Program-made: the position numbers and the translations under genes
NCBI GenBank assembly: GCA_030390025.1
Contig: CM059432.1
Span: forward strand, 11,098,001-11,162,000
Source of the DNA: Squalus acanthias
Taxonomy: Eukaryota
Length of the DNA: 64,000 bases
Reading direction: 5' to 3'
In this document: piece by piece, positions 3,931-58,331 of the stretch
How the letters are laid out: each line of letters starts with the position of its first letter
Position numbering within the stretch: position 1 is the stretch's first letter
Notes under the pieces: generated by a model
Database searches by the model: none
The model's input: only the letters and a program-made list of their open reading frames with translations
What the model was told of the DNA's origin: nothing

Positions 3931-4085
3931 ATCCCCTTTAAATTGCAGGGCGGAACATAACAGAAGCTAATTTACAGGTTTAAAAAAAAGACCAAGATGT
4001 TGGAAACTGAAATAAAAACAGAGAATGCTGGAAACACTCAGCAGGTCAGGCAGCAGCTGTGGAGAGAGAGAGAAACCGAGTTAAT

Positions 4086-4874
4086 GGCCCGTAATTTGCG
4101 GTGGTTAATAACGGCAAACAAAGCGTTTGCTTGCCATTGCCACTTTGAAACTGACCGCAACATCAGGTTGCAGCCCCTGCGCATCCTAATGCTGAAATCC
4201 TGAAGTTGCGCTCAGTCATTCACTGCTCCGACACCGGCTGCGCTGTGAAACCGCCCACCCCCCGCCCCACAGCCAGCAATCAGGATAATCTCTCTCATCA
4301 GGGAAACTGACGAAAACTTTGGTTCCTCCGCGGTAATACTGCTGTTAAATACCACATTAAAAGTTAGACCCTTTAGGATTAGATGTAACTGGGGTTTTAA
4401 CAACGTATTGACTGCTAAACAAAGGTTATAGCCCTGAAAAATGAATTTTCATTTTGTGGAGTGTTAAATTTATCTTTATTTCAGGTTTGCCTCTTCCCCA
4501 TGTGAGAGCCTCAATCTTTGTTTTGCTCTCTCTAACATTTTTAAAACGTTAGAATCAAAGGAACCTTCCCATTTCCTGGTTCACTGTCTTGTGAGAATTC
4601 GGCATTTTGATTGGCTGCTAAGACAGCTTGTTGACGTCGCAGCAGCTCGAGTTAGGGATTCCCCATTAGCTCGCGTTAGTGATTCCCCATTAGCTCGAGT
4701 TAGGGATTCCCCATTAGCTCGCGTTAGGGATTCCCCATTAACTTGCATTGATTTCAATTATGCGTCGGAAAAGCCGAACGTCTCGCCACAGAGATCGCGA
4801 GATCTTTGTGGGAAGCTTACTTCAGGGCCGGTGGCGAACGCCTTTGCTTCACCGCTGACCGCAAATTACGGGCC
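4086..4874. mobile_element. PIF/Harbinger-type MITE inserted in a Penelope pLTR
   Basis: Perfect 17-bp TIR ggcccgtaatttgcggt / accgcaaattacgggcc; 3-bp TSD aat/aac (the difference fits CpG decay). Confidence 0.85.
4644..4739. repeat. Tandem repeat, 4 x 24 bp (agctcgMgttagggattccccatt)
   Basis: Four contiguous near-identical units with no spacers. Confidence 0.95.
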
Positions 4875-5566: not shown

Positions 5567-6009
5567 AAGAAAAGAAGAAAGACTTGCATTTCTATAGCGT
5601 CTCTCGTGACCACCGGATGTCCCAAAGCGCTTTACAGTCAATAAAGTACTTTTGAAGTGGAGTCACTGTTGTAATGTAGGAAACTCGGCAGCCAATTTGC
5701 GCACAGCAAGCTCCCACAAACAGCACGGTGATAATGACCCGATAATCTGTTTTTGTGATGTTGATTGAGGGATAAATATTGGCCAGGACACCGGGGATAA
5801 CTCCCCTGCTCTTCTTCGGAATAGTGCCATGGGATCTTTTACCTGAGAGAACAGACACCTCATCCGAAAGATGGCACCTCCGACAGTGCAGCACTCCCTC
5901 AGCACTGCAATGAAGTGCCAACCTAGATTATGGGTTCAAGTCTCTGGAGTGGGACTTCAACCCACAACCTTCTGACTCAGAGGTGACCCACTGAGCCACG
6001 GCTGACACC
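5567..6009 (-). mobile_element. Deu-domain SINE (SacSINE1-like), near full length
   Basis: tRNA-like head (tggctcagtgg, ggttgaagtcc), Deu-like core, tail tgtaaagcgctttgggac...aaatgcaagtc. Confidence 0.85.
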
Positions 6010-6027
6010 TTATGTTGAAAGTACTCA

Positions 6028-6250
6028 AAAAAACGTAATTTTGCAGGAAGAGAATTTTGGTGAAGAAAGTAATGGACACGAAGCCTTTGATTTTTGAGAC
6101 AGCCAAACACCGCCCAAGAAGGGAGAAATGGGAAGGGGTGAATCAGTGGTCGAAAACAATCTGTGCAACAAGAAGCTGACAGCATATCTGCAAGAGATTT
6201 AACAATACTAAAAAGATTGTTAAACAAATAAAAACTAGTCAGCAGCTAAG
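6028..6250 (+). pseudogene. Degenerate Myb/SANT-like (Harbinger ORF1-type) domain relic
   Basis: KKRNF, then a frameshift, then KRILVKKVMDTKPLIF...REKWEGV...TRS*QHICKRFNNTKK; spacing fits a trihelix Myb domain; in-frame TGA at 6177. Confidence 0.45.
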
Positions 6251-7247
6251 TCAAATGTGGAACCTTTGATTGTATCCTCTTGAGACCCTGAAGGTTACGG
6301 GAAGTATAAAAGTCGGAAGTAGCTTCACAAACTCTGGTAAGTGTTTCTTTATTGTTTCGGATTTTCATGACACCAAAGTATAAAAATAAAGTTTTGTTTG
6401 AACCCAGTAGCTACAGTGCACCCCGCCGTAGGTTACATAAAGGATAAATTATTCTCAGTGTACCATTGTTTTACTGAGGATGTGAAGATTCTGAAGGTGG
6501 AGTGAAACGCTCCCAATTTCATAAATTTTCCGCTCTCCACAGATAACCTAATTTAGCCACAAGCCACTGATCACAAGCAGCACCAGCACACACAATTTTC
6601 AAGTTTGCAAGCGTGCAACTGGTGGAGGGGAAATTAATGCTACCAGTAGTTAAGAACGATGTCCTATTGCGTGCATCACAAGCCACATCCCTCTTGATTA
6701 CGCGGGAGAAGTAGGTGCAGACGCAGGTGGACAGCTACACCATTTGTCAGCCTGGTTGGATTGAACATTCATTCTGCATCATAGTAGGGTTGCCAACCCT
6801 TCAGGATTGCCCTGGAGTTTCCAAGAATGAAAGACGAATCTCCAGGACACTGCTGTGAGCAAACCCTGGAGAAAAAGCTCAGGGGCATAAAAAAATTGTG
6901 TTTAAAACAAAAAAAAATTCTTTGAACACTTTTGTTATAAAACAAATTGGAGATGGGGGAGGGGGGGCAGGGGAAAGGCTGTTTGACTGACAATCAAGAA
7001 TCATCCAATCAGGTAACAAAGAGTCTATTCACTTTCCAGTTGGCGTTGTAACAGTTCAAATCCGACTCCAAAAATGGATGCAATAAAAAACCAAGTCCAG
7101 ATACACACAATATCTTTAAGCTGTAGACATACAGAGAAATAAATGATACTACACCGTCCGGTTTCTCCGGGTAGAGATGTAACCTTCGTTGTTCCTTTCC
7201 AATCCTGATTTTCTCTACAACTTGTTACGAAAAGCTTGAGATCTTTA

Positions 7248-7388
7248 TACAAAAGCAAAATACTGCGGAGGCTGGAAATCTGAAATAAAAACAGAAAATG
7301 CTGGAAATACTCAGCAGGTCGGGCAGCATCTGTAGAGAGAGAGAAACAGAGTTAACGTTTCAGGTCGATGACCTTTCGTCAGAACACT
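7248..7388 (-). mobile_element. Penelope pLTR 3' end insertion
   Basis: Matches the ends of the Penelope element at 43613-46722; 12-bp TSD ttgagatcttta at 7236-7247 and 7389-7400. Confidence 0.85.
7351..7385 (-). ncRNA. Minimal type I hammerhead ribozyme motif (Penelope type), core intact
   Basis: gtt-CTGACGA-a-AGGTC-atc-GACCT-GAAAC-GTT-aac: conserved core, 5-bp helix II, palindromic AACGTT helix III region. Confidence 0.7.
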
Positions 7389-8444
7389 TTGAGATCTTTA
7401 CAGTCTGTTTCTCACAAAATACTGTCATTGCTGATTCAGTATGGCATGACAAGTTTTATTGTGAACAAGACACCCCAGAAAGGATGTATTTCCTTCAAAA
7501 CAACAGATGCCAACTTGTTACCACCCTGTCCTTCCATTGTTCCATTCCTTATCTCAAAACTGACTTGGATAACTGTTTCCAAATGTGGCCATGAAAACAA
7601 GTCAAGGGACATGAATCTTATACATCCTGTAGTTTCAGCAAATAATTAAAGCACAGTGTGAGCTAAATTGTACCCTGACAAATCAAACCCTAAAGCATCC
7701 TGGGAATGAGCAATTGTTTAACCATTTCAGTCAGTAAAAAGAAACCAGAAACTTTAATAGTATGAGATTAAACCAAATCCTAATCCTATGTTTGTATGTA
7801 TACACAACTAAGGTATCTTACAGAGTGGGAAGGCGGGTTGCGAGGATGGACATGTCGGGCAACCAATGGCGAAAGTGTGGGGGGGGCGGGGCAGTTAGAG
7901 GCAGGAGGTCATGTGATGAAACCACCAGCAGTATGTCCAGCCAGAGGTGGCAACCCCAGCAGCTCGTGAAAGCCTATTGTCTATGTTGTCTTATGTCCAC
8001 ATTCGATCGGACGTATTTCCTAATAAGTGATGACGCAAGTTGTTTTGAATCCTGTGCAGAAAATATTTTCCGTCGAAATAAGTGCAGGGTGCTAAATTCA
8101 GACTGTTGGAAAGTCGATGATAAAAAAATTATTAGTCAAATCGAAACTGGACAGAGAATAGACTGACAGAAAATGCTCCGGTCATCTTTTCCATTCTTAT
8201 TAAACGAGTGCCAGCCTACAATCTTGTGAGACTTTTTTGAGTTGTATGTTATTAAATGGCTATGTTACAAGTGTTTATCGTTTCAGAAAAGGAGTGCGTA
8301 TTCCTAGTGCAGGTTGAGATGGCAGTAAATTCATCAATTTATTTGCATAAAGCCCTCCATCAGCTACAGATCCTGCCCACTCAATGATTAGTTGACTCGT
8401 TCGTCATCATAAAAGATAAATTGCTGATGCTAACTTTGTAACTG

Positions 8445-8836
8445 TAGATAAGGTTAAGGGGTAATCTGATCGAGGTGTTTCAAACGTTAAAAGGATTCGA
8501 CAGGGTAGATACGGAGAAGTTATTTCCTCTGGTGGGGGGGAATCCAGAACGAGGTGGGTGCAGTCTTAAAATTAGAGCTAAACCATTTAGGAGGGAAATC
8601 AGGGAGCAATTTTTCACTCGAAGGGGGCAGCAGAAATCTGGAATTCTCTGTCCCAAAATGCTGGATCAGTTGAAGCTTTCAAGACTGAGATCGATAGATT
8701 TTTGTTGGAGGGACGGGTATCGAGGGATATGGAGCTACGGCAGGTAAATGGAGTTGAGGCGCAGATCAGCCCTGATCTCACTGAATGGTGGAGCAGGCTC
8801 GAGGGGCTGAATGGCCCCCTCCTGTTCCTATGCTCC
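8445..8836 (+). mobile_element. CR1 LINE 3' fragment
   Basis: ORF 8475-8747 (KGFDRVDTEKLFPLV) followed by CR1 3'UTR. Confidence 0.85.
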
Positions 8837-9435
8837 TAATTCAAACTATCGAATGAGAATTGAGGGCAATCGGGTGATAAAATGTGACTGTTCAATTAAC
8901 CTAATTCTTTCATCTTAATTTTTTAACAAGTATTTAGTGTTGTTCTCCCAAAGACTTTTTTTTCCCCCTCCCCGTCACTTTTGTTTTATCTTGCACTTCC
9001 CCCCCTAAGTTTGGCCAAGTCACAGACTACTCTCCGGCCAAACGGGGCAGGCAGGTTACCGGGCTTCTGCCGATGGATGGTATAACAATGCCTTCAGTCA
9101 CCAATTGTTGTGTGGAAGCGTCTAGTCCTTGCTCACTGCCTCCTCTTTGGCAGCACAACCGAGATTCCTTAGAATCTGGGGAGGCTGCAAAGAGCAAACC
9201 CATTCTGATATGCTGCTATACCTTGATGCTTTTTGCGCCTCTCATTTCTAACCTTGAAGTGGCAGAGTGAGACCATCCAGCATGTGATCAACATCAGTGG
9301 TGTTTCCATAAAAGCATATTGGTAATACAGTGAGATGGATAAAGTTCTGCCATCACATTTGTCCCATCAGGAGCCCCAACAGTATCCATGAACAGCTTGT
9401 GTCTCAGCATCAGGAAGCACTAAGACTTGAACCTA

Positions 9436-10195
9436 CCACAACAACTTGCATTTATATCGTGCCTTTAACATCAAAAGAATCCCAAAGTGCTTCACAAATA
9501 GGCATAAGGAAAACAGGCACTGAGCCAGAAAGGAAGCCATTAGGAGGGGAAACTGACAGCATTGTTGAAAAGCTGGGTTTAGAGGAAGGTTTTAAAAAAG
9601 AAAGACTTGCATTTATAGAGTGCTTTTCACAACCTCAGGTCCTCCCAAAGCGCTTCACAGCCAATGAAGTACTTTTTGAAGTGAAAACAAACAAAGACTT
9701 GCATTTCTACAGCGCCTTTTGCGACCTCATGACGTCCCAAAGCACTTTACAGCCAATGAAGTACCTTTTGAAGTGTAGTCACTGTTGTAATGTAGGAAAC
9801 GCGGCAGCCAATTTGCGCACAGCAAGCTCCCACAAACAGCAATGTGATAATGACCAGATAATTTGTTTTTAGTGATGCTGCTTGAGTGATAAATATTGGC
9901 CAGGACACCGGGGATAACTCCCCTGCTCTTCTTCAAAATAGTGGCCCTGGGATCTTTTACGTCCACCTAAGAGGGCAGACGGGGCCTCGGTTTAACGTCT
10001 CATCCGAAAGAAAGGTGGGCTGACAGGTGCAGAGGTCTGAAGGAGACAGTTCCAAATAGTAGCGACAAGGCAGCTGAAGGCTCGGCCAACAATGGTGAGT
10101 CCAAGTGAGGGAGAGGATGCACAAAAGGCCCGAGTTAGAGGAATGGATAAAGGGCTGGAGGAGACTACAGAAATAGGGTGTGGAAAGGCCACCAA
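9436..10195 (-). mobile_element. L2 3' fragment interrupted by SINE copies
   Basis: L2 tail (acaacttgcatttatat) at about 9440; resumes after about 10010 with ggcagctgaagg, matching L2 copies at 33300 and 39600. Confidence 0.6.
9596..10010 (-). mobile_element. Deu-domain SINE plus an extra SINE tail
   Basis: Same core and tail as 5567-6009. Confidence 0.8.
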
Positions 10196-10663
10196 GTGCT
10201 CTTGCTGCTGCACTTAAGGCTATCAGAGTTCTTGCTATTAAGCACTTAGATGCAGATTGGAGAATGTTGTATCGGTTGCCGAACAGTTCCTCGCAGCGTC
10301 ACCCTCAGAACACATTAGCAACGCCTCCATGTTTCACACTCATGATTTTTCCCAGGAACTATGGGCATTTAAGTCCTGGTGTCTGTGGAAGGTTCTGTGC
10401 TCAGATTGTGGTTTGTGATTCAACACTTGTCAGAGAAGTTGTTATTTTCCACTGCCCTGCCTGGGTTTCAGCCAACTTGTCTCCTGAGAAGATTAGTTGC
10501 AGAGACTCGAGTGTTAACCTTGATTTCAGACTATTAGTCATCCAGATAATGACAGTAATTATTTTCTCTCTCCTCTTCTCTCCTGTGCACCCAAATTGCA
10601 CCAACAAAAACAAGCAAACATTTTAGAAACCCGTTTTAAGGTATTTACTTCTTTATATAAGCT

Positions 10664-11378
10664 TTTTTTCGTTCATGGGATCTGGGTGTCGCTGGCAAGG
10701 CCACCATTTATTGCCCATCCCTAATTGCCCTCGAGAAGGTGGTGGTGAGCCGCCTTCTTGAACCACTGCAGTCCGTGTGGTGAAGGTACTCCCACAGTGC
10801 TGTTAGGGAGGGAGTTCCAGGTCTTTGACCCAGCGACGATGAAGGATCGGCGATATACTTCCAAGTCAGGATGGTGTGTGACTTGGAGGGGAACTTGGAG
10901 CTGGTGATGTTCCCATGCGCCTGCTGTCCTTCTAGGTGGAAGAGGTCGCGTGTTTGGAAGGTGCTGCCGCAGAAGCCTTGGTGAGTTGCTGCAGTGCATC
11001 TTGTAGATGGTACACACTGCAGCAACGGTGGTGGAGGGAATGAAGGTTTAAGGTGGTGGATGGGGTGCGAATTTGTCCTGGATGGTGTCGAGCTTCTTGA
11101 GTGTTGTTGGAGCTGCACTCATCCAGGCAAGTGGAGAGTATTCCATCACACTCCTGACTTGTGCCTTGTAGATGGTGGAAAGGCAAGGGGCGGTGGTTAG
11201 ACTCTCGCTTGTTGGAGATAGTCATTGCCTGGCACTTGTGTGGCGCAAATGTTACCTGCCGCTTATCAGCCCAAGCCTGAATGTCGTACAGGTCTTGTTG
11301 CATGCGGGCATGGACTGCTTCATTATCTGAGGAGCTGCGAATGGCGCTGAACACTGTGCAGTCATTAGCGAACATTCC
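10664..11378 (-). mobile_element. LINE family B (CR1/L2 group, possibly CR1-Zenon-like) 3' fragment with internal deletions
   Basis: RT motif GMFANDC...QQDLYDIQAWADK; C-terminus FKKAAHHHLLEGN*; shared family tail. Confidence 0.8.
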
Positions 11379-11379
11379 C

Positions 11380-11489
11380 AGGGATACAGGCCAAAGTCGA
11401 GTATATGGAGTTAGGTCGCAGATCAGCCACGATCTCATTGAATGGCGGAACAGGCTTGAGGGGCTGAATGGACTACTCCTGTTCCTATA
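11380..11489 (+). mobile_element. CR1 3'UTR fragment
   Basis: gatcagccacgatctcattgaatggcgg...ctcctgttcctat. Confidence 0.75.
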
Positions 11490-12767
11490 CTAGCACCATA
11501 GAGTGCAGAGAGGGCGAGTGAGTCACCAGATTCTGCAGTTGCCATCTGTGACTGACTTCTAGGAGATGCATGGAAGCATCCCAAAATACTTCTGTGAATG
11601 TTACTTTCCATCCCCCACAGCATCCATTCAACACCTCTCCATAATGGCGTGACTGAGAAATTTTAATTCACCACCTGGGGATTAACAGTGCAAACTCACA
11701 ACCTTTTAATCCACAACACAGCGTGTTGGTTCCTCCCTTCAATTTCTACATTGTACAGGACACAACACACCACTGAAAAGCACCACGCCGTCTAAGGTCT
11801 GTATTGTTGAGTTTGCCAAGTCTATCAATTAAACAAACCTAAACCTTTCGAATACCAAAATTGCATTCTGTATTAGTACGTTTAGCATGCTGGGCCTTGT
11901 TGCATTCTTCTGCGGGAATATCAATAAAAAGTAGAGTTTCGGATGCGTAACGAGCTCCCCTGGTGTGAGCTCCATGCTACCTTTGTTTCCAAATTAATTT
12001 TAAAGCAGAAAGCACCTACCAATATGATCGATGGTAATTATTATCCATGAGAGCATCTTCACTGAACCCTGTCCGTTTCTGTAGCGCCTGGCACTGAGTA
12101 AGAGGAGCTGCTGAGTGACATAGGGTAAGGGAATCCCCTTGTCACATGTTTGAAGTCAATGGAAAGGAAAGTTGGGAGAGGCGGATAATGGGCCGTCGCT
12201 CCGTTATTGTCCATTTTACACTTATCGCCAAAAGTTAAAATGACCCCCTCTGAGTGGGTGAAAATATATCAGTGTTATGGCCAAATGAACCCCTTCACTC
12301 CCCCCCACCCATCACATAGCGTCTTGTCTTTAGGAGGACAGGATTCCCTGCAATCAGCACTTTATTTTCCCTGTCATTTTGTTTTTTTGCGAGTTTTTAC
12401 CCCTTATCTCTTGAGACTGGCTCTTCACTGGGAGTTTCCTTCTGGTACCTTGCCCAAGTTGCAATCCAGATAGTGAGAGCCAGGAGAGAAGGAGGGTAAA
12501 AATCACAGGACAATTCGCCTTGGGTTCTTCTGTGCTACAAACAAATTCAAGAACAGCATGACTGGCAGAAGGTCCTAAGATCACAAGATAATTAGGAATG
12601 AGGAAGTCCATCTTAGTTCATCTATCAAGGAAGACCCATTTATCCAATTGTCTCTCCTCCAGTACTCTATCTGAAAGTCCATTCCATATATTGATCACTT
12701 GGTGAAGAAGAACCAAATTAATCCCAAATTTGCCTTTTAATAGTTCTACTCCTGCAATTTAATTAGA

Positions 12768-14010
12768 TCATAAGAACTAGGAGCAGGTGTAGGTCATTCG
12801 GCCCTTCGAGCCTGCTCCGCCATTCAATGAGATCATGGCTGATCTTCTGCCTCAACTCCATTCACCAGCCCTATCGCCATATCCCTTGATGCCCTTACTA
12901 GTCAGAAATCTATCGACTTCTGTTTTGAATATACCCAATGACTGAGCCTCCACAGCCCTCTGGGGTAGAGAATTCCAAAGATTCACCACCCTCTGTGTGA
13001 AGAAATTTCTTCTCATCTCAGTCCTGAATGGCCTACCCTTTATCTTGAGGCTGTGGCCCCTGGTTCTAGACTCCCCAGCCAAGGGAAACATTCTCCCAGC
13101 ATCCATCCTATCAAGCCTTGTAATAATTTTGTATGCTTCAATGAGATCCTCTCTCATTCTTCTGAATTCAAGAGAATACAGGCCTAGTTTACTCAATCTC
13201 TTCTCATACGACAGTCCCGCCATGCCAGGAATCAATCTTGTGAACCTTCATCGCACTCCCTCTGTGGCAAGTATATCCTTCCTTAGGTAAGGAGACCAAA
13301 ATTGTACACAGTACTCCAGGTGTGGTCTCACCAAGGCCCTATATAATTGGAGTAAGACTTCTTTACTCCTGTACTCAAATCCTCTTGTAATGAAGGCCAG
13401 CATACCATTTGCCTTCCTAATGGCTTGTTGCACCTGCACATTCACTTTCAGTGACTCATGTACAAGGACACCCAGGTCCCTTTGAGCATCTGCATTCCCC
13501 AATCTTTCACCATTTAGGAAATACTCTGCCTTTCTGTTTTTTCTACTAAAGTGGATAACTTCACATTTATCCACATTATATTCCATCTGCCATTTCTCGC
13601 CCACTCATTGAGCCTGTCGAGATCCCCTTGAAGCCTCTTCACATCCTCTTCACAACTGACACTGCCACCTAGCTTTGTATCATCAGTAAATTTGGAAATG
13701 TTACATTTAGTCCCCTCATCTAAATCATTGATATAGATTGTGAATAGCTAGGGCCCAAGCACCGATCCTTGCGGTACCCCACTAGTCACAGCCTGCCATC
13801 CTGAAAAAGACCCGTTTATCCCTACTCTTTGTTTTCTGTCTGTTAACCAATTCTCAATCCATGCTAATATATTACCCCCAATTCCATGTGCCCTAATTTT
13901 GTTCACCAACCTCTGTGTGGGACCTTATCAAAGGCCTTCTGAAAATCCAGATACACTACATCTATCGGTTCCCCTTTGTCTACTCCACTAGTTACATCCT
14001 CAAAGAACTT
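12768..14010 (-). mobile_element. CR1 LINE, 5'-truncated RT and 3'UTR
   Basis: ORFs 13248-13604 and 12852-13235 ([22 protein letters not shown]); CR1 tail. Confidence 0.9.
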
Positions 14011-14049
14011 TAAAGTAATTTTGCAGATTTATTTTTTCTATACTATTTA

Positions 14050-15150
14050 CGATATTATGTACACCTATAAGATCACCTCTTTTCAAGGCTGAAATGCCCA
14101 AGTTTCTCCAATGGTTCCTCATAGTCATTCCTCATAATTCAGCCCCAGAGGGCTGTGGATGCTGAGTCTTTGAGTATATTCAAGGCTGAGATAGATAGAT
14201 TTTTGGACTCAAGGGATATGGAGATCGGGCAGGAAAGTGGAGTTGAGGTGGATGATCAACCATGATCTTATTGAATGGCGGAGCAGGCTCGAGGGGCCGC
14301 ATGGTCTACTCCTGCTCCTATTTCTTATGTTCTAACACTAGGGTTCAGCCTCATGGCTCTTAACTGCACAGCCTTGCTCTACTTGAACAACTAGCCTGTG
14401 TCTCGGTGGCCAGAACCAGATACTGTACTCAAGGTATGGTTTGGTCAAAACACTATACAGTATGAGTATGACTTCCTTTGACTTGTACAGTACTGTGTAG
14501 GCTATATTTTTTTTGGTTTTGTTGATTGTTGCTCTGCACTGGTTGGAGATGTTGAGTGTCAAGTCCACTAACGCTCTGAGATTCATAGAATCATAGGATA
14601 GTACAGCACGGAAGGAGGCCATTCAGCCCATCGAGTCTGCGCCAGCTCTTTCGAAGAGCAATCCAAGTTAGTCCCACTCCCCTGTTCTTTGCCCATACTC
14701 CTGCAATTTTTTTCTCCTTCAAGTATTTATCCTATTCCCTTTTGAAGGCTTCTATTGAATCTGTATCCACCACCTTTTAAACTTTATCTTTAGCTATTAT
14801 AACATGGAGTATGTATGTTGCCAGTTTTTCCTTCCTATTTGCAATATCTTATACTTGTCCACATTAAATTTCATCTGTCATTGCTCTACTCTTATATATT
14901 TTGTCCGAAATCATTGTGTAATTTCTGAATCACCTTCTTTCAATCCACCGCCCTTCCTAGTTTGGTCTCATCAGAAAACTTGACTTGCTTTGAGTCTCTA
15001 AATCCAAATCTCTGATGTATATTAAAACAGTAGTGGCCCCAACACCAAGGACAAAGGCACGCCACTCAGTACTTTCCCACCCTGGCTTACCTTCCTCTAA
15101 CTAGTACCTATTGTTTTCTCTGTGCTTCAGACAACTTCTTACCCATTTCA
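14050..15150 (-). mobile_element. Old CR1 fragment interrupted by two younger CR1 3' ends (14140-14333 +, 14580-14776 -)
   Basis: ORF 14338-14622 (LYSVLTKPYLEYSIWFW); CR1 3'UTR motifs in both inserts. Confidence 0.65.
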
Positions 15151-15184
15151 AAGAATTACCCCGAATCCCACAACTTTGAGCTTA

Positions 15185-15292
15185 GCTTTCCTACATTACA
15201 ACAGTGACTACACTTCAAAAGCACTTCATTGGCTGTAAAGCTCTTTGGGACATCCTGAGGTCGTGAAAAGCGCAATATAAATGCAGGTCTTT
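15185..15292 (+). mobile_element. Deu-SINE tail fragment
   Basis: tttcctacattacaacagtgactacacttcaaaag...aaatgcagg. Confidence 0.75.
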
Positions 15293-15369
15293 CCATGTGG
15301 AAACTTGTGCTTTTTCCCCACAGTCCACTTGGGGTTATCAACAAGTTAAGAAGGTTGTTTTTTTCCCCC

Positions 15370-15530
15370 CTTTATCCGTTCATGGGATGTGGGCGTCGCT
15401 GGCAAGGCCAGCATTTATTGCCCATCCCTAATTGCCCTTGAGAAGGTGGTGGTGAGCTGCCTTCTTGAACCGCTGCAGTCCGTGTGGTGTTTTCCTAGCG
15501 GTTTGATACTGAGTGGCTTGTTCGGCCATT
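15370..15530 (-). mobile_element. 5'-truncated short derivative of LINE family B (end of head joined to LINE tail)
   Basis: The family tail is joined directly to ctgagtggcttg..ggccatt, which matches 26964-26985 at the 5' end of the long copy. Confidence 0.65.
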
Positions 15531-16727
15531 CTTCTGAATTCCTGGCACTAAGTGTATATTGTCTGTCTGCCTGGCTTTGTGTGGTACAGGGAGTCTACGA
15601 ACAAAGAGTAAAAGAAAACTTACGAAATAAATAAATGCATTTTTAATTATGTGTTTCGACACAGTGAAATAAATCAATTTTGAAAATGTTTTCTGTTCTC
15701 TTTAAAACAATATGATTTGATTTGATTACATGACAGTGTGTAAACTTGACAAACATTTGACAGAGGTTTAACAAGGTACTTTTAAAATATGATTGTAAAT
15801 AGCATGTATTAACAACATATTAGGGGGTAGGATTTTCAAAGTAAATTAATGGACTAGAGCAGGATTCCATCCCATCTCAAATGTATCTCAAACATTACAC
15901 GATTATCATTATAGTTGGGTGGTGGGGCGGAACTGAGCGTTGTAGCGGAAAGGTTTTGCACCATGGAGAAAGGCACAACCCCAATTTCAATCTCCGCTCC
16001 ACTCATCTACACTCCACTAAGTGGGAAAATGCTGAGCAGATGGGAAATGTGAAGATCAGAAGGGAGAGTCCCCAAGACCTCCTAGCAGGAGGCAACAGGT
16101 AGACTTTACAGAGATCTGCGAGCAGTCAAGTTGCCTGCCTTTTCAAGCCTAGGCAGACCAAAAGGTGGGCAATAAATCATCAGAAGAAAAATGAAAATGA
16201 GGGGAAAAAAGGCATAACTAATGCGTCTATTTATTATGGTCATTCACGCCAATTACTGCATATTCTCAATATGAGTTACCTTCTAAAACTATTGTCCTCT
16301 ATTTTCTGAACCGGAAACAAAGCTGAAATTCAGTGGCAGTCTTGCGTTTGCCATTATTTCATGTGTGTGTGTGAACTTTGTTGTTTTGTTCCTGAAGGTT
16401 TGGCAGGTTCCCATATTATTCGAGAAGTACGCAGACAGGATCAGCATAACAATGAGCCGCAAGAATCAAGAATCTTTACTTATAAGATTTTATTTAGCTA
16501 AAAATAACATTCAGAAAAATAAAAGCAACTGCAGAAATTTGCAATTGTCAAATGCTGCTATGATTTTAGGTAAGTGGTTCAGACTTGAGTGAAGTGATGC
16601 ACAACTGGTTTAACCATCCATCACTAGATCTGGCTGGACCACATCTAGCGCTACCTACCCTCACTCTCCTCTGCCGAAACCGCTACTATGCCAAGATCAT
16701 CCCGGAGAGCAAAGATAACCCTCAGCT

Positions 16728-17832
16728 ACAAAAAGCAAAATACTGCGGATGCTGGAAATCTGAAGTAATAACAGAAAATGCTGGAAATACTCAGCAGGTC
16801 AGGCAGCATCTGTGGAGAGAGAGAAACAGAGTTAACGGGCTGAATTTTGATACTGGGGCGGGTTGGGGTCGTGTTATCCACTTTTCGTGTTATCCACCCG
16901 ACTGCAATTGGATGTGGGAGATTGATGCAATTTTCACCTAATTGGGCAATTGAGTTCCAGCATGTGGGAACCCATGAACCAATTAGTGTTTTCAGTCTGA
17001 AAGTCGTCTCTGATGATGTCATCATTGCTGCTGCATTGAAGGTCTTCAGAGACTGCCTGGCCTTTGTTGTGAGAGGACCTGGATGCAAAATGAGCAGCAG
17101 CACTAAGTCTGCACCCAGATATTTTTACACCACCACTGAGATATATATATATATATATCCAGCTCCAGCCAAATGTACTCCAGCCAGCCATCCAAATCTG
17201 CTCCCGCCAGGTTTCACAATTGTGATTCAGAACAGGCGTGCTTCACGTAGAACAAGGGTTAAAATCAAAAAGGCCTTTCAAAATGGCATTATAGAGCCAA
17301 TTTAGTGCTTGTTAAGGGCCTTAACAGCCTATCCCGTCTCTTAAAGGCGGGACGCAGTCGGGACTAGCAGACACGATTTCATGAAAATTGCGTGGAGGCG
17401 GGATGGAGGCGGACTTGTGTCTGCCCGCCAGTTTTCGCAATTTTAACCCCCCACACGCCTCCAAACCCGCCTCCACGGGTCAATGAAAATCCAGCCCAAT
17501 GTTTCAGGTCGATGACCCTTCATGGCCACATTGGGAAACAGTTAGCCAAGGCAGTTTTGAGATAAGGAATGGAACAATGGAAGGACAGGATGGTAACAAG
17601 TTGGCATCTGTTGTTTTGAAGGAAATACATCCTTTCTGGGGGGTCTTGTTCACAATAACACTTGTCATGCCATAATGAATCAGCAATGACAGTATTTTGT
17701 GAGAAACAGACTGTAAAGATCTCAAAGTGTTCTCACGAAAGCTCATCGACCTGAAACGTTAACTCTGTTTCTCTCTCCACAGATGCTGCCTGACCTGCTG
17801 AGTATTTCCAGCATTTTCTGTTTTTATTTCAG
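16728..17832. mobile_element. Penelope-type insertion carrying an inverted copy of 7278-7595
   Basis: 15-bp TSD agataaccctcagct at 16713-16727 and 17831-17845; inverted pLTR ends; 17519-17834 is the reverse complement of 7595-7278. Confidence 0.85.
16837..17497. mobile_element. PIF/Harbinger-type MITE inserted in a Penelope pLTR
   Basis: TIR gggctgaatttt / aaaatccagccc; 3-bp TSD aac/aat; pLTR reads through (gttaac|gtttcaggtc). Confidence 0.8.
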
Positions 17833-18734
17833 ATAACCCTCAGCTTCTTTACTCCACTACAGCTCCTTGAAGCCCTCATCTTGTCCATGAAACCCACATC
17901 TTGCTCCCTTGACCCCATTCCTACTAAAGTGCTGATCAGTCAATTTCCTTTCCTGGCCTCCCATGCTAGCTGACATGGTAAATTGTTTCCCTCTCCACAG
18001 TTACTGCGCCCCTCCTCAAAAGAACCATCCTGGACCCCAGTCCTGATTCCAAATCAACCTCCCCTTCCTCTCCAAAGTCCCTGAATGTGTTGTTGCCTCC
18101 CAAAGCTGCACCCATCTTTCCCACAATTCTGTTGGAATCTCTCCAATCATGTTTCCACACCACAGCATCAAAACAGCCCTAATCAAAGTCACAAAGGACA
18201 CCCTGTGTGACTATGGTGCATTTTCCTTCCTTGTCCTTCTTGACCTCTCTGAAGCCTTTGTCACAGTCAACACCCCTCCAATGCCTCTCCTCTGTCGTCC
18301 ATTTTAGAGGGACTGCCCTCGCTTGATTCTACTATGACCTTTTCAATTATAGCCAGAGCACCTCCACCAATGGCTTCTCTCCCTGACTCCCGCACCGTTA
18401 CCTCTGGAGTCTCCTAACGATCCATCCTTGGCTCTCTCCTCTTCTTCCTCAACAGGCTACCCCTTGACAACATCATCTGAAGACATGAGGGGAATTTCAA
18501 CATTGAAGAGCGTGTGGGTTTAGGTGCGGGTTGGGGGGGTTAAATTCGCCGAAAATGTCAGCGCACCTAGAAGCCGGCTCCAACCCGCCAACTTCTGGGT
18601 TTCACTGGGACGCGTTGGGCAGATTGCCGGTAACCCCCCTCAGGAGAGGTGGGTTACTAATTTGAATTTGCAAATCGCTCCATTGTCCTTTAAAATTTAA
18701 TGCCACATGCACGGGTTTCCCGGGCTTCCTGAAA

Positions 18735-37154: not shown

Positions 37155-37624
37155 ACTGTATGTCCAAAGCACAGTTTCCCTGTCTAACCCCGTGCTTAAA
37201 CACCTTGTGGACTCTAGAGAGCAAGAGTGAGTATTAAAAAACAGTCTAGTTGAATCAGTGATAAGGCTTGTGAATGACCCAGTTCTTACTAATAGCATAT
37301 TAGTTTGCAGTATGCTCTTGAAGAGTCCAAACGCTACAAGGTCCATTTTACAAGCCACAGAAACATCATAGCAACCATCAATAAGAAAGAGATATTGGGA
37401 CGGATTATTGCTATGAACGACTGCCATTGAATAATTAACAACGAATGCATGTGTGTAGGTGGCATAACTGAATTAACGAGTAATTTTTTTATTATACATT
37501 CCCTAATTCACCAACCTGCCCAACACAGTTTCACGTTTTTACGGTCCGCCTGGCGAAGGAGGAGGTTCGCAATCTGCCTATCTGAAGGGGTTGAAAGGAG
37601 TGCTGGAACGTCATGAGGAGGGTC

Positions 37625-37942
37625 ACCTTCCAGTGTAACACCCCCCCAACCTTCCAGTCCCCAGTAACACACACCCCCAACCTTCCAGTTCCCAGTAACA
37701 CACACCCACAACCTTCTATTCCCCAGTAACACACCCCCCAACCTTCCAGTCCCCAGTAACACACACCCCCCCAACCTTCCAGTCCCCAGTAACACACACC
37801 CCCCAACCTTCCAGTCCCCAGTAACACACCCCCCAACCTTCCAGTCCCCAGTAACACACCCCCCAACCTTCCAGTCCCCAGTAACACACCCCCCAACCTT
37901 CCAGTCCCCAGTAACACACCCCCCAACCTTCCAGTCCCCAGT
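37625..37942. repeat. Minisatellite, about 10 x 30-33 bp (ccccccaaccttccagtccccagtaacaca)
   Basis: Directly visible tandem array. Confidence 0.95.
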
Positions 37943-38019
37943 CACCCCCATCCTAAGTCACAACCCACTCTCCCAATCTTCCAAGTCCCATCCAGGCAGC
38001 AGTGCCACCTTCCAGTGCT

Positions 38020-41640: not shown

Positions 41641-43612
41641 AAATCATGCACATATATGGTATGGTTACACAGAACTATAATCTTATGAAACATTTTTATA
41701 TATATATATTTTCATAAGATTATAGTTCTCAGTGTAACCATGCCAAGCATCATTGGAATTATTTCAAACATTCATCGCAAAACATCTCGCCCCTTCCCCT
41801 CAAATTACCGTGTCACTTTTTCTCCAAGTTGGTATGTTTGTACCTCTCCCTGGTTGTTTCACTCAACTGCCAACATAAGACAGAAGCTTCATTTCAGTTT
41901 TACCAAGTTTCTTCAACCAGAAGACTGCACTATACAGTCTCCTTGGTGCAGCAAACTTTAACAAAAATTAGGAAATCAGGTCAAGTAATTGTTCCTTTTT
42001 TAGTAATTTTCTGCTTTCCATCTTGGGTTCCTTGTACAAGAGGATTGGCTTGTAAACCTGTCTTTAGAATACTGTCAATACTGCTGTACAAGAGCAGTGT
42101 ACGGCGATTTGCCCTCTACGTTTGCTTGTTATAACTAAGTTTCGGGTTTTGACGTAAATAAAGTTAGGAAATCTATGTGTGGGGAGTTTGTAGGTGGAAA
42201 CCTGTGCTTTGTGGTCCAGCATGTTGAAGATGCTTTGTGCCACCATGTAGTTACTTCACTGATTGTTAAAAAATATATCTATCTCTGGCATAGCGCGCAG
42301 TTCCCATATTACACTTTTGTCCTTTTATATCATGTCACACTTTTTCACATTTTGGTCACTCTTTGATGCAAAATAAAACTGCAGTGAATCAGAGAGTTGA
42401 AGAGGTAGGGAAGTACAAATCAGAAGTGAGTGAAGTGGCTGGAAACTACCAGTGACTTATTAAAACAACTTATCCTGAAGGATCAGTCAGGTTAACCTAC
42501 CAATAAACGAAAGGAGAAGGTGAGACCATGGAAAATTACCTATTTCCCAATAACCAGATTTAATTCAGTATCTCTGGGGAAATTTCTTAAACTTGACTAT
42601 AAATTTGTCTTTTGTATCTTTGAGTGCCGTCAAAGGCTTCGGCCTCTTTCAAAAGGTTGGCCTTCAACTTGATATTTTTGCCCAGAGCTGTGACTGTCTG
42701 CTGAAGGCAGATTCTACAGAGTGATGCACGATTTTTCAGGATGCAGCATCAGCTCAACTAGAAAAGGGTTTGGTTGTTTTATTTTGACGATCTTTGAAGA
42801 AAATCTAGGGGACAAATTTCAAAAGCCTTATTCAGGTGTTAGTTTTGTTTAAACAACAAGGATATCTGTGTCTGAAAGGGGAAAAGAAGAAAAACAGGAA
42901 CAGGTGGAGATAATGCAAACCTGATGGTGCTTATTAAACAAATGTGGCTGTTTTTATTAAACAAATGTGGCTGTTTTTATTTATCTTTTATCCAATCTAT
43001 TTTTCAGCGGTCAAGTCAAAATTGTGCCTTTGTGTAGAACAGTATTTCAGTTTGTGTATTTTTTGAAAATGATTGGAATTTAAAATGGACAATGAATTTT
43101 AGTAGGTTTTCAACAAAACCGTTAAATAAAGCTATTGACTTCAGTTTTTTTTAGTTCAGAAAGTGTGTCCTACCACACATTTTATAAGCAATGCAAAAGT
43201 TCCTGACTGATTTTTGCCAGTTGAAAGTAAAAATAAATTCCAATAAGACGGAGTGAAATCTTTTACTTATTTTATGCAGGTGTATTTATTTATCTGAGGA
43301 GAGCAGTGTTTACTTATCCTCTCAGAAGCCAATTACATAACATTTAATTCAGTATCTCTGGGGAAATTTCTTAAAAGCTTACAAACCAGTGCTGACAGAC
43401 CCCTTCCCGTATCAGTGCTATTCTCTCTCTTTTGCCCCCTGCCCCCACCCCCCTTGTCCAGTGCTAACAGACTTCCGGAATCCACCAGTGATTCAAAACC
43501 CACGTTCCACTTGCCAGACCCCATTTTGTGCATATTCCAGGTTCCCCTAGTGATGCCAATCTCCACTACCTCACTGCTGCCAAACATCAGGAACTACCTC
43601 CAAACTATTGCA

Positions 43613-46600
43613 ACAACAGAAAATGCTGGAAATACTCAGCAGGCCAGGTAGCATCGTGGAGAGAGAAACAGAATTAACGTTTCAGGTCGATGACTCTTTG
43701 TGAGAACTGGAAAAAGTTGGAGAAGTAACAGATTTTTAAGCAAGTGTGGGGCAGGGAAAGGGAGGAGGGGAGGAAAGAACAAAGGGAAGGTCTGTGATAG
43801 GATGGGAGGCAGGAGAGATTAAAAGACAAAAGGGATGATGGTGCAAGGCAAAAGGAGATGGTAATGGGACAAGTTAAGAAACAAAAGATGACTCGAGATG
43901 AGGTGTAAATGGCGATGGCAGAATCATCAACAGTTGCCATGTGAGAGAAAAAAGAAAACATAGGGGCCGAGGTTATAGTCTGAAATTGTTGAACTCGATG
44001 TTGAGTCCAGAAGGCTGTAAAGTGCCTAATTGAAAGATGAGGTGCTGTTCCTTGAGCTTGGTTGGAACAGTGCAAGAGGCCGAGGACAGAGAGATCAGAG
44101 TGGGAGTGGAGCGGAGAACTAAAGTGACAGGCGACTGGAAGCTCAGGGTCACGTTTACGGACTGAACGGAGGTGTTCTGCATTTGGTCTCCCCAATGTAG
44201 AGGAGACCGCATCGTGAGCACCGAATACAGTATACTAAATTGCAAGAAGTACAAGTAAATCGCTGTTTCACCTGGAAGGAGTGTTTGGGGCCCTGGACAG
44301 TGGGAAGGGAGGAGGTAAAAGGGCAGGTGTTGCATCTCCTGTGCTTGCATGGGAAGGTGCCGTGGTGTTGGGGGTGAAAGGAGTGGACCAGGGTGTCGTG
44401 GAGGGAGTGGTCCCTTCGGAATGCTTAAAGGGTGGGGAGGGACAGGGGAAGATGTGTTTGGTGGTGGGATCACGCTGGAGATGACGGAGGATGATTCGTT
44501 GAATGTGGAGGCTGGTGGGGTGAAAGGTGAGGACAAGGGGAACCCCAATCATGGTTCTGGGAGGGAGGGGAAGGGGTGAGAGCAGAAGTGCGGGAAATGG
44601 AACGGACACGGTTGAGGGCCATGTCAACCAAGGTAGAGGGGAATCCTCGGTTGTGGAAAAAGGAAGACATAGCGGAAGTACTAGTATGGAAGGTGGCATC
44701 GTCAGAACAAATGAGATGGAGAAAATGGAAGAATGAAATAGTCCTTACAGGAAGTGGGGTAGGAGGAAGTGTAGTCCAGGTAGCTGTGGGAATCGGTGGG
44801 CTTATAGTGGATGTTTGTCAATAGCCTATCCCCAGAAATGGAGACAGAGAAGTCGAGGAAGGGAAGAGTTGGAGATGGACCATGTGAAGGTGAGGAAAGG
44901 GTGGAAATTGGAAGCAAAGTGAATGAAATTTTCTAGTTCCGGACGAGAGCAGGAAACGGCACTGATACAGTCATCAATATACTGGAAAAAGAGGAGAGGG
45001 AGGGAGCCTGAGTAGGAGTGGAACAAAGAATGTTCCACATATCCCACGAAAAGGCAGGCATAGCTAGGGCCCATGTGGGTTCCCATAGCAACACCTTTAA
45101 TTTGGAGGAAGTGAGGCGTCAAAGGAGAAGTTGTTCAATGTGAGAACAAGTTCAGCCAGGCGGAGGACGGTGGTGGTGGATGGGGACTGGTTGTGCCTCT
45201 GTTCAAGGAAGAAGCGGAGCGCTCTCAGGCCATCCTGGTGGGGGATGGAGGTGTAGAGGGATTGGATGTCCGTAGTAAAAAGGAGACGGTTGGGGCCAGG
45301 AAACTGTTAAAGTGGAGGAGGGCGTCGGAAGAGTCGCGAATGTAGTTGGGAAGAGACTGGACAAGGGGAGAAAAAATGGAGTTGAGATAGGAAGAAATCA
45401 GTTCCGTGGGGCAAGAACAGGCTGAAATGATGGGTCTACCAGGGCAGCCACATTTTGCGGAACACCTCCGTTCAGTCCGTAAGCGTGACCCCGCGCTTCC
45501 GGTCGCCTGTCACTTTAATTCTCTGCTGCACTCCCACTCTGATCTCTCGGTCCTTGGCCTCTTACACTGTTCCAACGAAGCTCAAGGAACAGCACCTCAT
45601 CTTTAAATTAGGCACTTAACAGCCTTCTGGACTCAACATCGAGTTCAACAATTTCAGACTATAACCTCGGCCCCTATGTTTTCTTTTTTCTCTCACATGG
45701 CAACTGTTGATAATTCTGCCATTGCCATTTACACCTCATCTCGAGTCATCTTTTGTTTCTTAACTTGTCCCATTACCATCTCCTTTTGCCTTGCACCATC
45801 ATCCCTTTTGTCTTTTAATCTCTCCTGCCTCCCATCCGATCATAAGAACATAAGAAATAGGAGCAGGAGTAGGCCAATCGGCCCTTCGAGCCTGCTCCGC
45901 CATTCAATAAGATCATGGCTGATCTGATCCTCACCTCAAATCTAAAGAAAACAAGAAGTAGGAGCAGGACCCGGCCACTCAGCCCCTGGGCCCGCTATGC
46001 CACCCACAGGGCCTCGACCGATCCGAACTCAGCCTCATGTCCAATTTCCTGCCCGCTCCCCGTAACCCCTAATTCCCTTTACTTCTAGGAAACTGTCTAT
46101 TTCTGTTTTAAATTTATTTAATGATGTAGCTTCCACAGCTTCCTGGGGCAGCAAATTCCACAGACCTACTACCCTCTGAGTGAAGAAGTTTCTCCTCATC
46201 TCAGTTTTGAAAGAGCAGCCCCTTATTCTAAGATTATGTCCCCTAGTTCTAGTTTCACCCATCCTTGGGAACATCCTTACCGCATCCACCCGATCAAGCC
46301 CCTTCACAATCTTATATGTTTCAATAAGATCGCCTCTCATTCTTCTGAACTCCAATGAGTAGAGTCCCAATCTACTCAACCTCTCCTCGTATGTCCACCC
46401 CCTCATCCCGGGGATTAACCGAGTGAACCTTCTTTGTACTGCCTCGAGAGCAAGTATGTCTTTTCTTAAGTATGGACACCAAAACTGTATGCAGTATTCC
46501 AGATCCAGATCACAGACCTTCCCTTTGTTCTTTCCTCCCCTCCTCCCTTTCCCTGCCCCACACTTGCTTAAAAATCTGTTACTTCTCCAACTTTTTCCAG

Positions 46601-46722
46601 TTCTGACTAAGGGTCATCAACCTGAAATGTTAACTCTGTTTCTCTCTCCACGATGCTGACCTGAGAGTTTCCAGCATTTTCTGCTTTTTCAGATTTCCAA
46701 CATCCGCAGTATTTTGCTGTTG
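43613..46722 (-). mobile_element. Penelope-like element: 5'-truncated RT and GIY-YIG remnant on -, followed by an inverted copy of its 3' end
   Basis: QIKGVAMGTHMGPSYACLF...YIDD; YKPTDSHSYL; YCIRC..CGLLYIGET; AEHLRSV; pLTR at both ends; degenerate TSD tccaaactattgca / tccaaaatgttgca. Confidence 0.9.
45841..46500 (-). mobile_element. CR1 3' fragment (long-3'UTR subfamily) inside the Penelope element
   Basis: ORF 46035-46406; Penelope arm reads through on both sides. Confidence 0.9.
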
Positions 46723-47094
46723 TCCAAAATGTTGCATCTTGCTGTGTTTTTAAGAATAAGGTTTAAAAATGAAATTCTCAGGTTAAAGAATATAATATAT
46801 GTACTAATGCATCTCCTGTGCCATTGCTTATGGTAAATCACAGGATATGTGCTGTGTTTCAACTGCCTGGTGTCTTTATGTAGCTAGTTCTGTCTTTCTC
46901 CCTCTCCTGGCATCTTCTGGTTTTCCCACATTTTGTTTTCTTCTACTTTCTTTCCCTGTCCTCTTGTCTCTCTTTCCTAGCCTTTTTTTCCATGTTTCTA
47001 CCCCACCCTTTGTTAATTACCATTATATATGGTGGCCAAGGTGGGTGTGTGTTCTTTGTGAGCTGCAGCTAGGGGGTGAAGCATTTGGTCAAGA

Positions 47095-57173: not shown

Positions 57174-58331
57174 TAGGGCTGTCAAGTGATTAAAAAACAA
57201 TTAATTGCGATTAATCTAGTGATTAAAATGTTGATCGTTATTCTTTATTTTAATGGCATATTTAATTGATACAATTATTGCATCCATCTCTTTCAAGTTT
57301 GTTTTATTACTGATATTATGATCATTCAATAAACAACCCAGCATAAAAACCCTGTTTTTCCTATTTCTGGATTCATACAAATCTAATGTACTTCTAACAT
57401 AGCCAAGTGTATTGTACCGACATGATGGGAGGCCCCATATGTGCTCACGAGTCACAGCCATTTGATCATGTGGCTACGATTGTGCTGAAGATCAGCATAT
57501 GGACAGAAGAGCTCTGCTCTGTAGCGTACTTGGGAGACCTCCGGACAGGGCAACAAGTTGAAAACTCTGCCTGCCCACTTGGTTAATGTTAGTCAGGGGC
57601 GCATTAACGCGCAGGCCCACGTCCAGGGCACCCAGACAAATACGACACCACCGCCAGGAAAAGTAGAAGCAGGAGACTCTACCTAGAACCCCACTCCAGT
57701 CCTTCATCCTCCCTGCTCTCCTACCACTTTTCCAGTAGCAGCAGCAGCCCCAGCATGGGGACAAGGTCTGACGACGAAGGGTCATCGACCTGAAACGTTA
57801 ACTCTGTTTCTCTCTCCACAGATGCTGCCTGACCTGCTGAGTATTTCCAGCATTTTCTGGTTTTATTTCAGCTTTCCAGCATCCGCAGTATTTTGCTTTT
57901 GTATTGGGGACAATATAGTTATTTTTTTTAAAAGCTTTGACCGAGCAACTTGAGTGGGGAGAAGGGTAGCTCGGATCTCCGCACCTAATCCACCCGCCAA
58001 AGCCTCTCTTGGCATTTTCATCATCAGTGATCATTAACATCATCATGGTGGGGGTGAGAGAAGCAAAACTGAGGTAGCCGGAGATGATAATCATTACTGA
58101 CAATACCTGTGACACTGTAAAGAAGCTTTCTGAGAATTGATACAAAGAAGCTGGCAGCCCATGGAATGGATAAATGAAGGGTTGACGCGGGCTGCGGGAG
58201 CTACCGGACTGGGAACAGTGGACTTTGTTTTATTCGATCGGGAAGGCGGCGGATTTAACTACCGCGATTAATGCGTGTTAAATTTTTAAACGCGTTAACT
58301 TCACAAGTTAACTGAATAATTGACGGCCCTA
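57174..58331. mobile_element. Non-autonomous hAT element
   Basis: TIR tagggctgtcaa / ttgacggcccta; 8-bp TSD gttctaaa / gttctcaa; subterminal gcgattaat motifs. Confidence 0.85.
57765..57904 (+). mobile_element. Penelope pLTR end with hammerhead-like motif (57768-57802)
   Basis: CTGACGA-cga-a-GGGTC-atc-GACCT-GAAACGTT; 9-bp TSD tggggacaa at 57756-57764 and 57905-57913. Confidence 0.85.

Follow-up and report, generated by a model that had tools for sequence, protein, structure and literature searches.

A one-off capture by a Penelope-like element insertion in Squalus acanthias, with a sequence-matched donor 9–10 kb away

Capture of host DNA between pLTRs by endonuclease-positive Penelope-like elements (PLEs) is described in the rotifer Adineta vaga (Arkhipova et al. 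2013, PMC3846280). For the Poseidon PLE of Anolis carolinensis, an in vitro study reported that both strands are nicked and extended, that two adjacent internal start sites of the reverse transcriptase (RT) give tailed and tail-less ends, and that hammerhead cleavage is dispensable (Frangieh et al. 2024, PMC11167929). According to the same study, the steps of Penelope insertion that follow priming have not been experimentally validated. Other retroelements offer partial likenesses: L1 or Alu cDNA takes nearby genomic sequence, typically <250 bp, or pairs with a homologous neighbour (bioRxiv 2024.08.27.596794, PMC11702581, PMC3415434); SVA and L1 5′ transductions, such as SVA_F1, carry along sequence from upstream of the source element, and SVA itself joins LTR-derived and non-LTR parts (PMC12593883, PMC13174262); and non-LTR retrozymes are short hammerhead-bearing, pLTR-related sequences moved in trans (bioRxiv 10.64898/2026.07.22.740005). 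A literature search with most subscription journals outside its scope turned up no PLE whose capture had been traced to a local donor.

The window analysed here is a 64,000-nucleotide stretch of Squalus acanthias DNA (GenBank assembly GCA_030390025.1, contig CM059432.1, positions 11,098,001 to 11,162,000, forward strand), and it contains a composite insertion of 1118 bp (16728–17845) which is a one-off capture of the kind already published, not a new family. Its head-to-head layout matches structures described in PMC3846280 and PMC8557442, and its single tailed arm matches the two RT start sites of Poseidon (PMC11167929). In contrast to the Adineta vaga cases, the donor is traced, 9–10 kb away in a vertebrate-sized genome, and what was captured is the donor pLTR's 5′ flank including the old junction (PMC3846280). 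The SVA and L1 transductions are ascribed in their sources to upstream promoters or splicing and gave rise to spreading subfamilies (PMC12593883, PMC13174262), whereas the present case is a single copy that does not begin at the inferred start of the LTR. The non-LTR retrozymes form tandem multi-copy families (bioRxiv 10.64898/2026.07.22.740005), whereas the present insertion is a lone head-to-head copy whose hammerhead core has changed.

The core of the insertion, 17519–17834, had been read in a preliminary description as a diverged reverse complement of 7595–7278 holding LTR interior and a Penelope junction, and self-comparison and alignment of the window bear this out over 318 nt at 95.9% identity. 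The inverted copy consists of 193 bp of LTR U3 (17519–17711, plus strand, from 7595–7403, 96.4% identical to the donor), a 14-bp stretch (17712–17725, plus strand) that reproduces the upstream target-site duplication of the donor Penelope (7402–7389), and a right pLTR arm without tail (17726–17834, plus strand, from 7388–7278), which stops in the common tail-less end zone of the family and carries two changes in the hammerhead core and stem II. In front of it stands an inverted left pLTR arm on the minus strand, made up of an outer part with a ~35-nt Penelope tail (16728–16836, 94–95% identical to other pLTRs) and an inner remainder (17498–17523) terminating in the TTCAT (17519–17523) that it has in common with the captured segment. 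The preliminary description had this inverted arm right but omitted the 661-bp MITE (16837–17497, no strand assigned) that splits it and makes up 59% of the 1118-bp span. This MITE has the ends GGGCTG…CAGCCC and a 3-bp duplication (AAC/AAT), and its full-length relatives elsewhere in 1.66 Mb (85–88%) each have a 3-bp duplication of their own; it is presumably PIF/Harbinger-like and entered the left arm later. MITEs with 3-bp duplications lie at or beside the same pLTR GTTAAC site at no fewer than four separate loci (at least 16837, 4085–4874, and CM059432.1 near 10342550 and 10354800), which suggests that this site is a recurrent MITE target.

The whole insertion is enclosed by a 15-bp target-site duplication (TSD), AGATAACCCTCAGCT, identical at 16713–16727 and 17831–17845 (plus strand), the first 4 nt of the right copy (AGAT, 17831–17834) overlapping the pLTR. 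Microhomology had been claimed for both joins, and both TTCAT and AGAT are present in the sequence. Across the reconstructed empty site, the flanks give a single uninterrupted LINE ORF2-like frame (…KDNPQL|LYSTT…), presumably, by its motifs, that of an L2, the element in which the TSD had earlier been placed. Contigs of one sequencing run span both outer junctions (16616–16757 and 17808–18104), but the run may be the assembly's own sample and thus does not count as independent support. A joint corresponding to the empty site was absent from the best 15 of 1192 joints, and contigs from relatives end short of the junctions.

The pLTR family provides the frame in which this layout is to be read. 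A survey of 1.664 Mb of contiguous DNA gave 118 pLTR matches and 26 head-to-head pairs, 23 of which have exactly one tailed arm, and a TSD was found in 10 of the 17 pairs checked, eight of these being 13–15 bp long; thus the layout of the composite insertion is the family norm. Immediately 3′ of GIY-YIG ORFs, and in the same sense, this pLTR is found at two loci, L068 and L057, whose matches to PF01541 have E-values of 8.9e-5 (passing the cut-off) and 1.4e-4 (just under the cut-off), respectively. Among six ORFs, four match GIY-YIG (one passing the cut-off) and two match RVT_1. A longer, broken head-to-head Penelope copy at 43609–46723 retains what we take, by eye, to be RT, a CX4CX2C linker and a GIY-YIG motif, and no relevant Pfam match was obtained for this frameshifted copy. 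Within it are also a 387-bp inversion and a LINE insertion of 666 bp that came later, and one of its arms has in common with the copy studied here a CUCA change in the hammerhead core. A CX2-5CxxC linker between RT and endonuclease is described as a mark of Neptune/Nematis (PMC8557442), so that the linker ahead of the GIY-YIG motif in 43609–46723, a difference from Poseidon, would point to that assignment by motif rather than by an RT tree. Judged from these sequence features, namely the one-tailed head-to-head layout, the enclosing 15-bp TSD and the linkage of the pLTR to GIY-YIG ORFs, the composite insertion reads as that of an endonuclease-positive PLE, and the Penelope machinery invoked earlier holds up.

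The same features weigh on the possibility that no Penelope enzymes were involved, i.e., that template switching during DNA repair or replication placed 7595–7278 beside a pre-existing solo pLTR. Such an event would account for the microhomology at both joins, and short-range inverted duplications made in this way are known (PMC8756506). However, both arms lie within a single 15-bp TSD, the right end belongs to the tail-less end zone of the family, and most pairs of the family share the one-tailed head-to-head layout, which makes an enzyme-free origin highly improbable.

The donor Penelope end is a 5′-truncated copy on the minus strand (7250–7388) consisting of a minimal hammerhead motif, pLTR and tail, with a 14-bp TSD at 7236–7249 and 7389–7402. 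Its hammerhead, predicted from the sequence, reads CUGACGA, a 5-bp stem II and GAAA-CGUU, and the core CUGAYGA occurs in 36 of 51 scored pLTR copies. An Rfam scan of 7000–18000 found no hammerhead at E ≤ 1 in donor or copy (two chance matches), and the fold of the candidate has a z-score of −0.21. Several solo pLTRs with their own TSDs are cut off just upstream of the hammerhead core (7250–7388, 57770–57905 and CM059432.1 near 11302312), a position that is possibly a preferred 5′ end.

The identification of the donor depends on the junction between LTR and pLTR. A 19-mer across it occurs at two places in the 3.71-Gb genome, the donor and the copy, with none for the reversed control, and among 40 sequences scored of 486 candidates only these two span the junction, the others ending in the LTR part at ≤92%. 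The captured LTR part is 96.4% identical to the donor as against ≤91.7% to 29 other copies of the family, and it has one rare allele in common with the donor. By these sequence comparisons the locus 7047–7822 is identified as the source of the copied segment, and since the junction is found only at donor and copy genome-wide, the local origin proposed at the outset is upheld, with no closer relative elsewhere, and no family arose. The product of the capture has not multiplied; the suggestion that a new non-autonomous element had been born is therefore not borne out, given the two junction places and the single copy without a daughter.

Among the 118 pLTR matches, only this pair has a captured host flank in common, in a survey that covers donors inside 1.66 Mb. 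The other flanks in common belong to an independently inserted MITE and to three loci inside a common host repeat. The latter (CM059432.1 near 10317400, 10480550 and 10524600) have a short head-to-head pLTR fragment and flanks that are 84–91% identical, as if the fragment had been amplified within another repeat. Further candidate captures did not stand up: a 122-bp spacer proved to be a high-copy repeat, two distant "TSDs" turned out to be repeats within the target itself, and one common pLTR flank reflects independent insertions of the same MITE family.

Seven differences separate donor and copy in the LTR part, and all of them are donor-derived (six clear, one in a gappy column). Six of the seven in 7403–7595 are transversions. 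The donor–copy divergence of 4% is similar in size to the ~5% divergence of a relative, one contig of which spans the left junction of the LTR, so the LTR is older than the split from that relative.

The donor LTR is a solo LTR of ~625 bp plus the Penelope insert (7047–7822, minus strand, 5′ end at 7822). In this family the ends are TG…CA, and 20 of the 27 copies with both ends found have a 4-bp TSD (≤1 mismatch); at 15 of 42 loci the left end was not found. Its orientation was obtained from a polypurine search, in which 7 of 10 loci have common internal sequence and a terminal purine tract just before TGTAAGATACC; these loci represent related subfamilies, four of the seven matching the donor at 67–75% over 350–470 nt, two in pieces only and one not at all. 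Because the purine tract and internal sequence adjoin TGTAAGATACC in these related loci, the 5′ end is placed at 7822 and the sense is that of the minus strand, the same as that of the donor pLTR. Both the earlier designation of 7047–7822 as an LTR and its minus-strand reading thus find support in the TSDs and the internal sequence of relatives. Searches for primer-binding-site patterns gave 14 matches without common downstream sequence on one side and one match against one control on the other. Searches of 15 ORFs plus 12 read-through frames from five internal stretches gave no match to gag, pol or env; such matches as there were fell on LINE domains. Among 93 end motifs just one LTR pair emerged, 11 kb apart, and it was rejected since it contains LINE RT and Myb pieces and is not a full-length element. 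The superfamily may be either Gypsy or ERV.

Several observations concern the surroundings of this LTR. The solo LTR itself lies within an element with the ends AGGGTTGCCAACC…GGTGGCAACCC (about 6786–7950), forming a three-tier nest of MITE, LTR and Penelope; the outermost element is presumably a hAT-like MITE. On the plus strand, TATAAAAG in 6290–6345 includes the motif CGGAAGT twice as well as a GTAAG resembling a splice donor, and 8001–8500 is a CpG-rich patch with an observed/expected ratio of 1.0; by their sequence, the two may be host promoter elements that flank the donor. An AATAAA lies within the last 75 nt of the LTR in 14 of the 23 copies with an assigned end. The donor (7047–7120) lacks the family AATAAA near its 3′ end owing to a ~18-bp deletion. 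The AATAAA near 7455 was rejected as a poly(A) signal, being donor-specific at a place where the family reads AATAAC.

The preliminary description held that an LTR promoter, with TATAAGA at 7622 as its TATA box, started an RNA at 7592 which Penelope RT copied to its cap. The spacing is as described, TATAAGA (7616–7622, minus strand) starting at 7622 and the A of TTCAT being 7592, i.e., exactly 30 nt. A strict TATA[AT][AG] falls in a 6–10-nt window at 0.7–1.2% of positions, and since such spacing arises by chance at only ~1% of positions, a cryptic start at 7592 keeps some plausibility. It would have to be a cryptic start in U3, perhaps used after the Penelope insertion had disturbed the normal TATA region: the family-conserved TATAAA (7244–7249, minus strand, ~410 nt into the LTR) coincides with the donor Penelope insertion site and was duplicated by that insertion, and the upstream duplicate (7402–7397) reads TGTAAA in donor and copy, which favours this account. 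However, of 29 copies, eight have TATAAG and none TATAAA at the 7622 site, whereas 20 have TATAAA further downstream, at the conserved site, and TATA is absent in the four of ten polypurine-search loci where the equivalent site could be located. The 5′ end of the copy lies ~190 nt upstream of the family TATA, so by motif anatomy, as distinct from measured starts, the family's transcription start is elsewhere and the copy begins inside U3, not at the inferred cap site. In addition, donor and copy go on matching for 3 nt upstream of 7592, within the microhomology, something accounted for by truncation but not by a cap end; the choice of motif came after the end point had been seen; and daughter copies are absent. 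On sequence grounds, the copy thus starts at a microhomology within U3 that is likely not the normal transcription start of the LTR, and copying to a cap at 7592 is judged unlikely.

The reading preferred here, tentatively and somewhat short of probable, is that nascent cDNA switched onto the nearby genomic pLTR copy and captured its flank. Following the PLE literature, two staggered nicks would prime two cDNAs, the tail end giving the left arm and the internal start the right arm. The growing right-arm cDNA would then pair by pLTR homology with the older Penelope end 9–10 kb away and be extended into the donor flank, copying ~207 bp into the U3 of the LTR, and the captured end was likely joined to the left arm via the short microhomology; the template at this step would be DNA, not RNA. 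The one-tailed arms (23/26 pairs) and TSDs (10/17) are PLE hallmarks that agree with this sequence of events. The distance also bears on it: landing within 10 kb by a freely diffusing RNA amounts to ~20 kb / 3.7 Gb, i.e., 5e-6 per event, so that a local template is needed, and pLTRs are dense enough (118 in 1.664 Mb, one per ~14 kb) for a homologous copy to be close by in most cases. The earlier assumption of an RNA template thus loses ground, as DNA-level template switching explains the short distance equally well or better.

The main competitor is a 5′ transduction, in which minus-strand read-through RNA from upstream of 7595 passes through U3 into the pLTR and is copied by Penelope RT, probably before leaving its locus; the RT would have ended synthesis prematurely and linked up with the other arm at TTC(AT). 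The LTR and the donor pLTR have the same sense, as this requires, and PLEs capture host sequence between pLTRs with TSDs and are reported to move it in trans through pLTRs (PMC3846280) without any need for DNA invasion, which counts against a DNA switch. The hammerhead would not remove the 5′ part of such an RNA, because uncleaved RNA is the main template in vitro (PMC11167929) and single minimal hammerheads barely cleave (PMC4209133). However, the 10-kb distance requires an extra step, the normal promoter of the LTR would not make the captured RNA since the conserved TATA lies downstream of the captured part, and no host coding exon was found in the 145 of 161 candidate ORFs that were scanned, the sole match being to low-complexity extensin. 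The captured segment contains no intron, and contigs of two runs presumed to be RNA leave the unique parts of 5950–9600 uncovered, which counts neither way.

The polymorphic sites of the two arms were compared with the donor. The left arm differs from it at two of them, 7378 and 7374, so it is likely derived from another template, which speaks against a single read-through RNA; the right arm agrees with the family wherever the donor has rare alleles 3′ of the hammerhead. Both observations agree with a DNA switch, but the sites in hand fit DNA and RNA templates alike, and the donor's rare pLTR alleles may postdate the event, as all seven LTR-part differences are donor-derived. A (TC)5 tract common to the left arm and the donor, present in 5 of 35 scored copies, would instead fit donor-derived RNA for both arms. 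Likewise, G>T on the minus strand accounts for four of the seven changes in the donor (6.4% in the family background), a skew that would fit minus-strand transcription but was noticed post hoc and falls to two of five with a stricter filter.

Precedents for the DNA switch come from L1 insertions containing stretches copied from genomic DNA close by (PMC11702581; bioRxiv 2024.08.27.596794) and from Alu cDNA completed by recombination with a nearby Alu (PMC3415434). However, the templates in the L1 cases are typically no more than 15 bp from the target site, in contrast to 9–10 kb and a different enzyme class here (bioRxiv 2024.08.27.596794), and the Alu cases have no TSD and delete DNA, whereas a perfect TSD is kept here (PMC3415434). 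The case was moreover chosen because donor and copy lie in one window. The misplaced promoter, the lack of a host coding exon in the scanned ORFs, the different template of the left arm and the L1/Alu precedents narrowly favour the DNA switch, and read-through RNA is a genuine but lesser possibility. The interpretation given in the preliminary description is thus partly supported overall.

Where the donor is known, the TSD intact and both junctions present, a capture can be read as a record of the Penelope steps after priming, and this one shows the use of a local template. It is a single event, and nothing points to a function or to spread. Should such pairs prove common, DNA and RNA templates could be told apart by how far away the donors lie, how they are oriented and whether introns are kept, and the pairs would reveal a route for short-range shuffling of regulatory DNA. 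A broader proposal, which must be regarded as rather doubtful, is that Penelope integration in this lineage routinely finishes via a nearby pLTR copy or its nascent RNA, shuffling neighbouring host DNA over kilobases. Extrapolation from 118 per 1.664 Mb gives ~260,000 pLTRs genome-wide, and if routine switching were true, even 1% of events would leave thousands of donor–copy pairs recording the second half of the PLE cycle. Elsewhere in the window, 37500–38000 is a tandem array of ~30-bp units.
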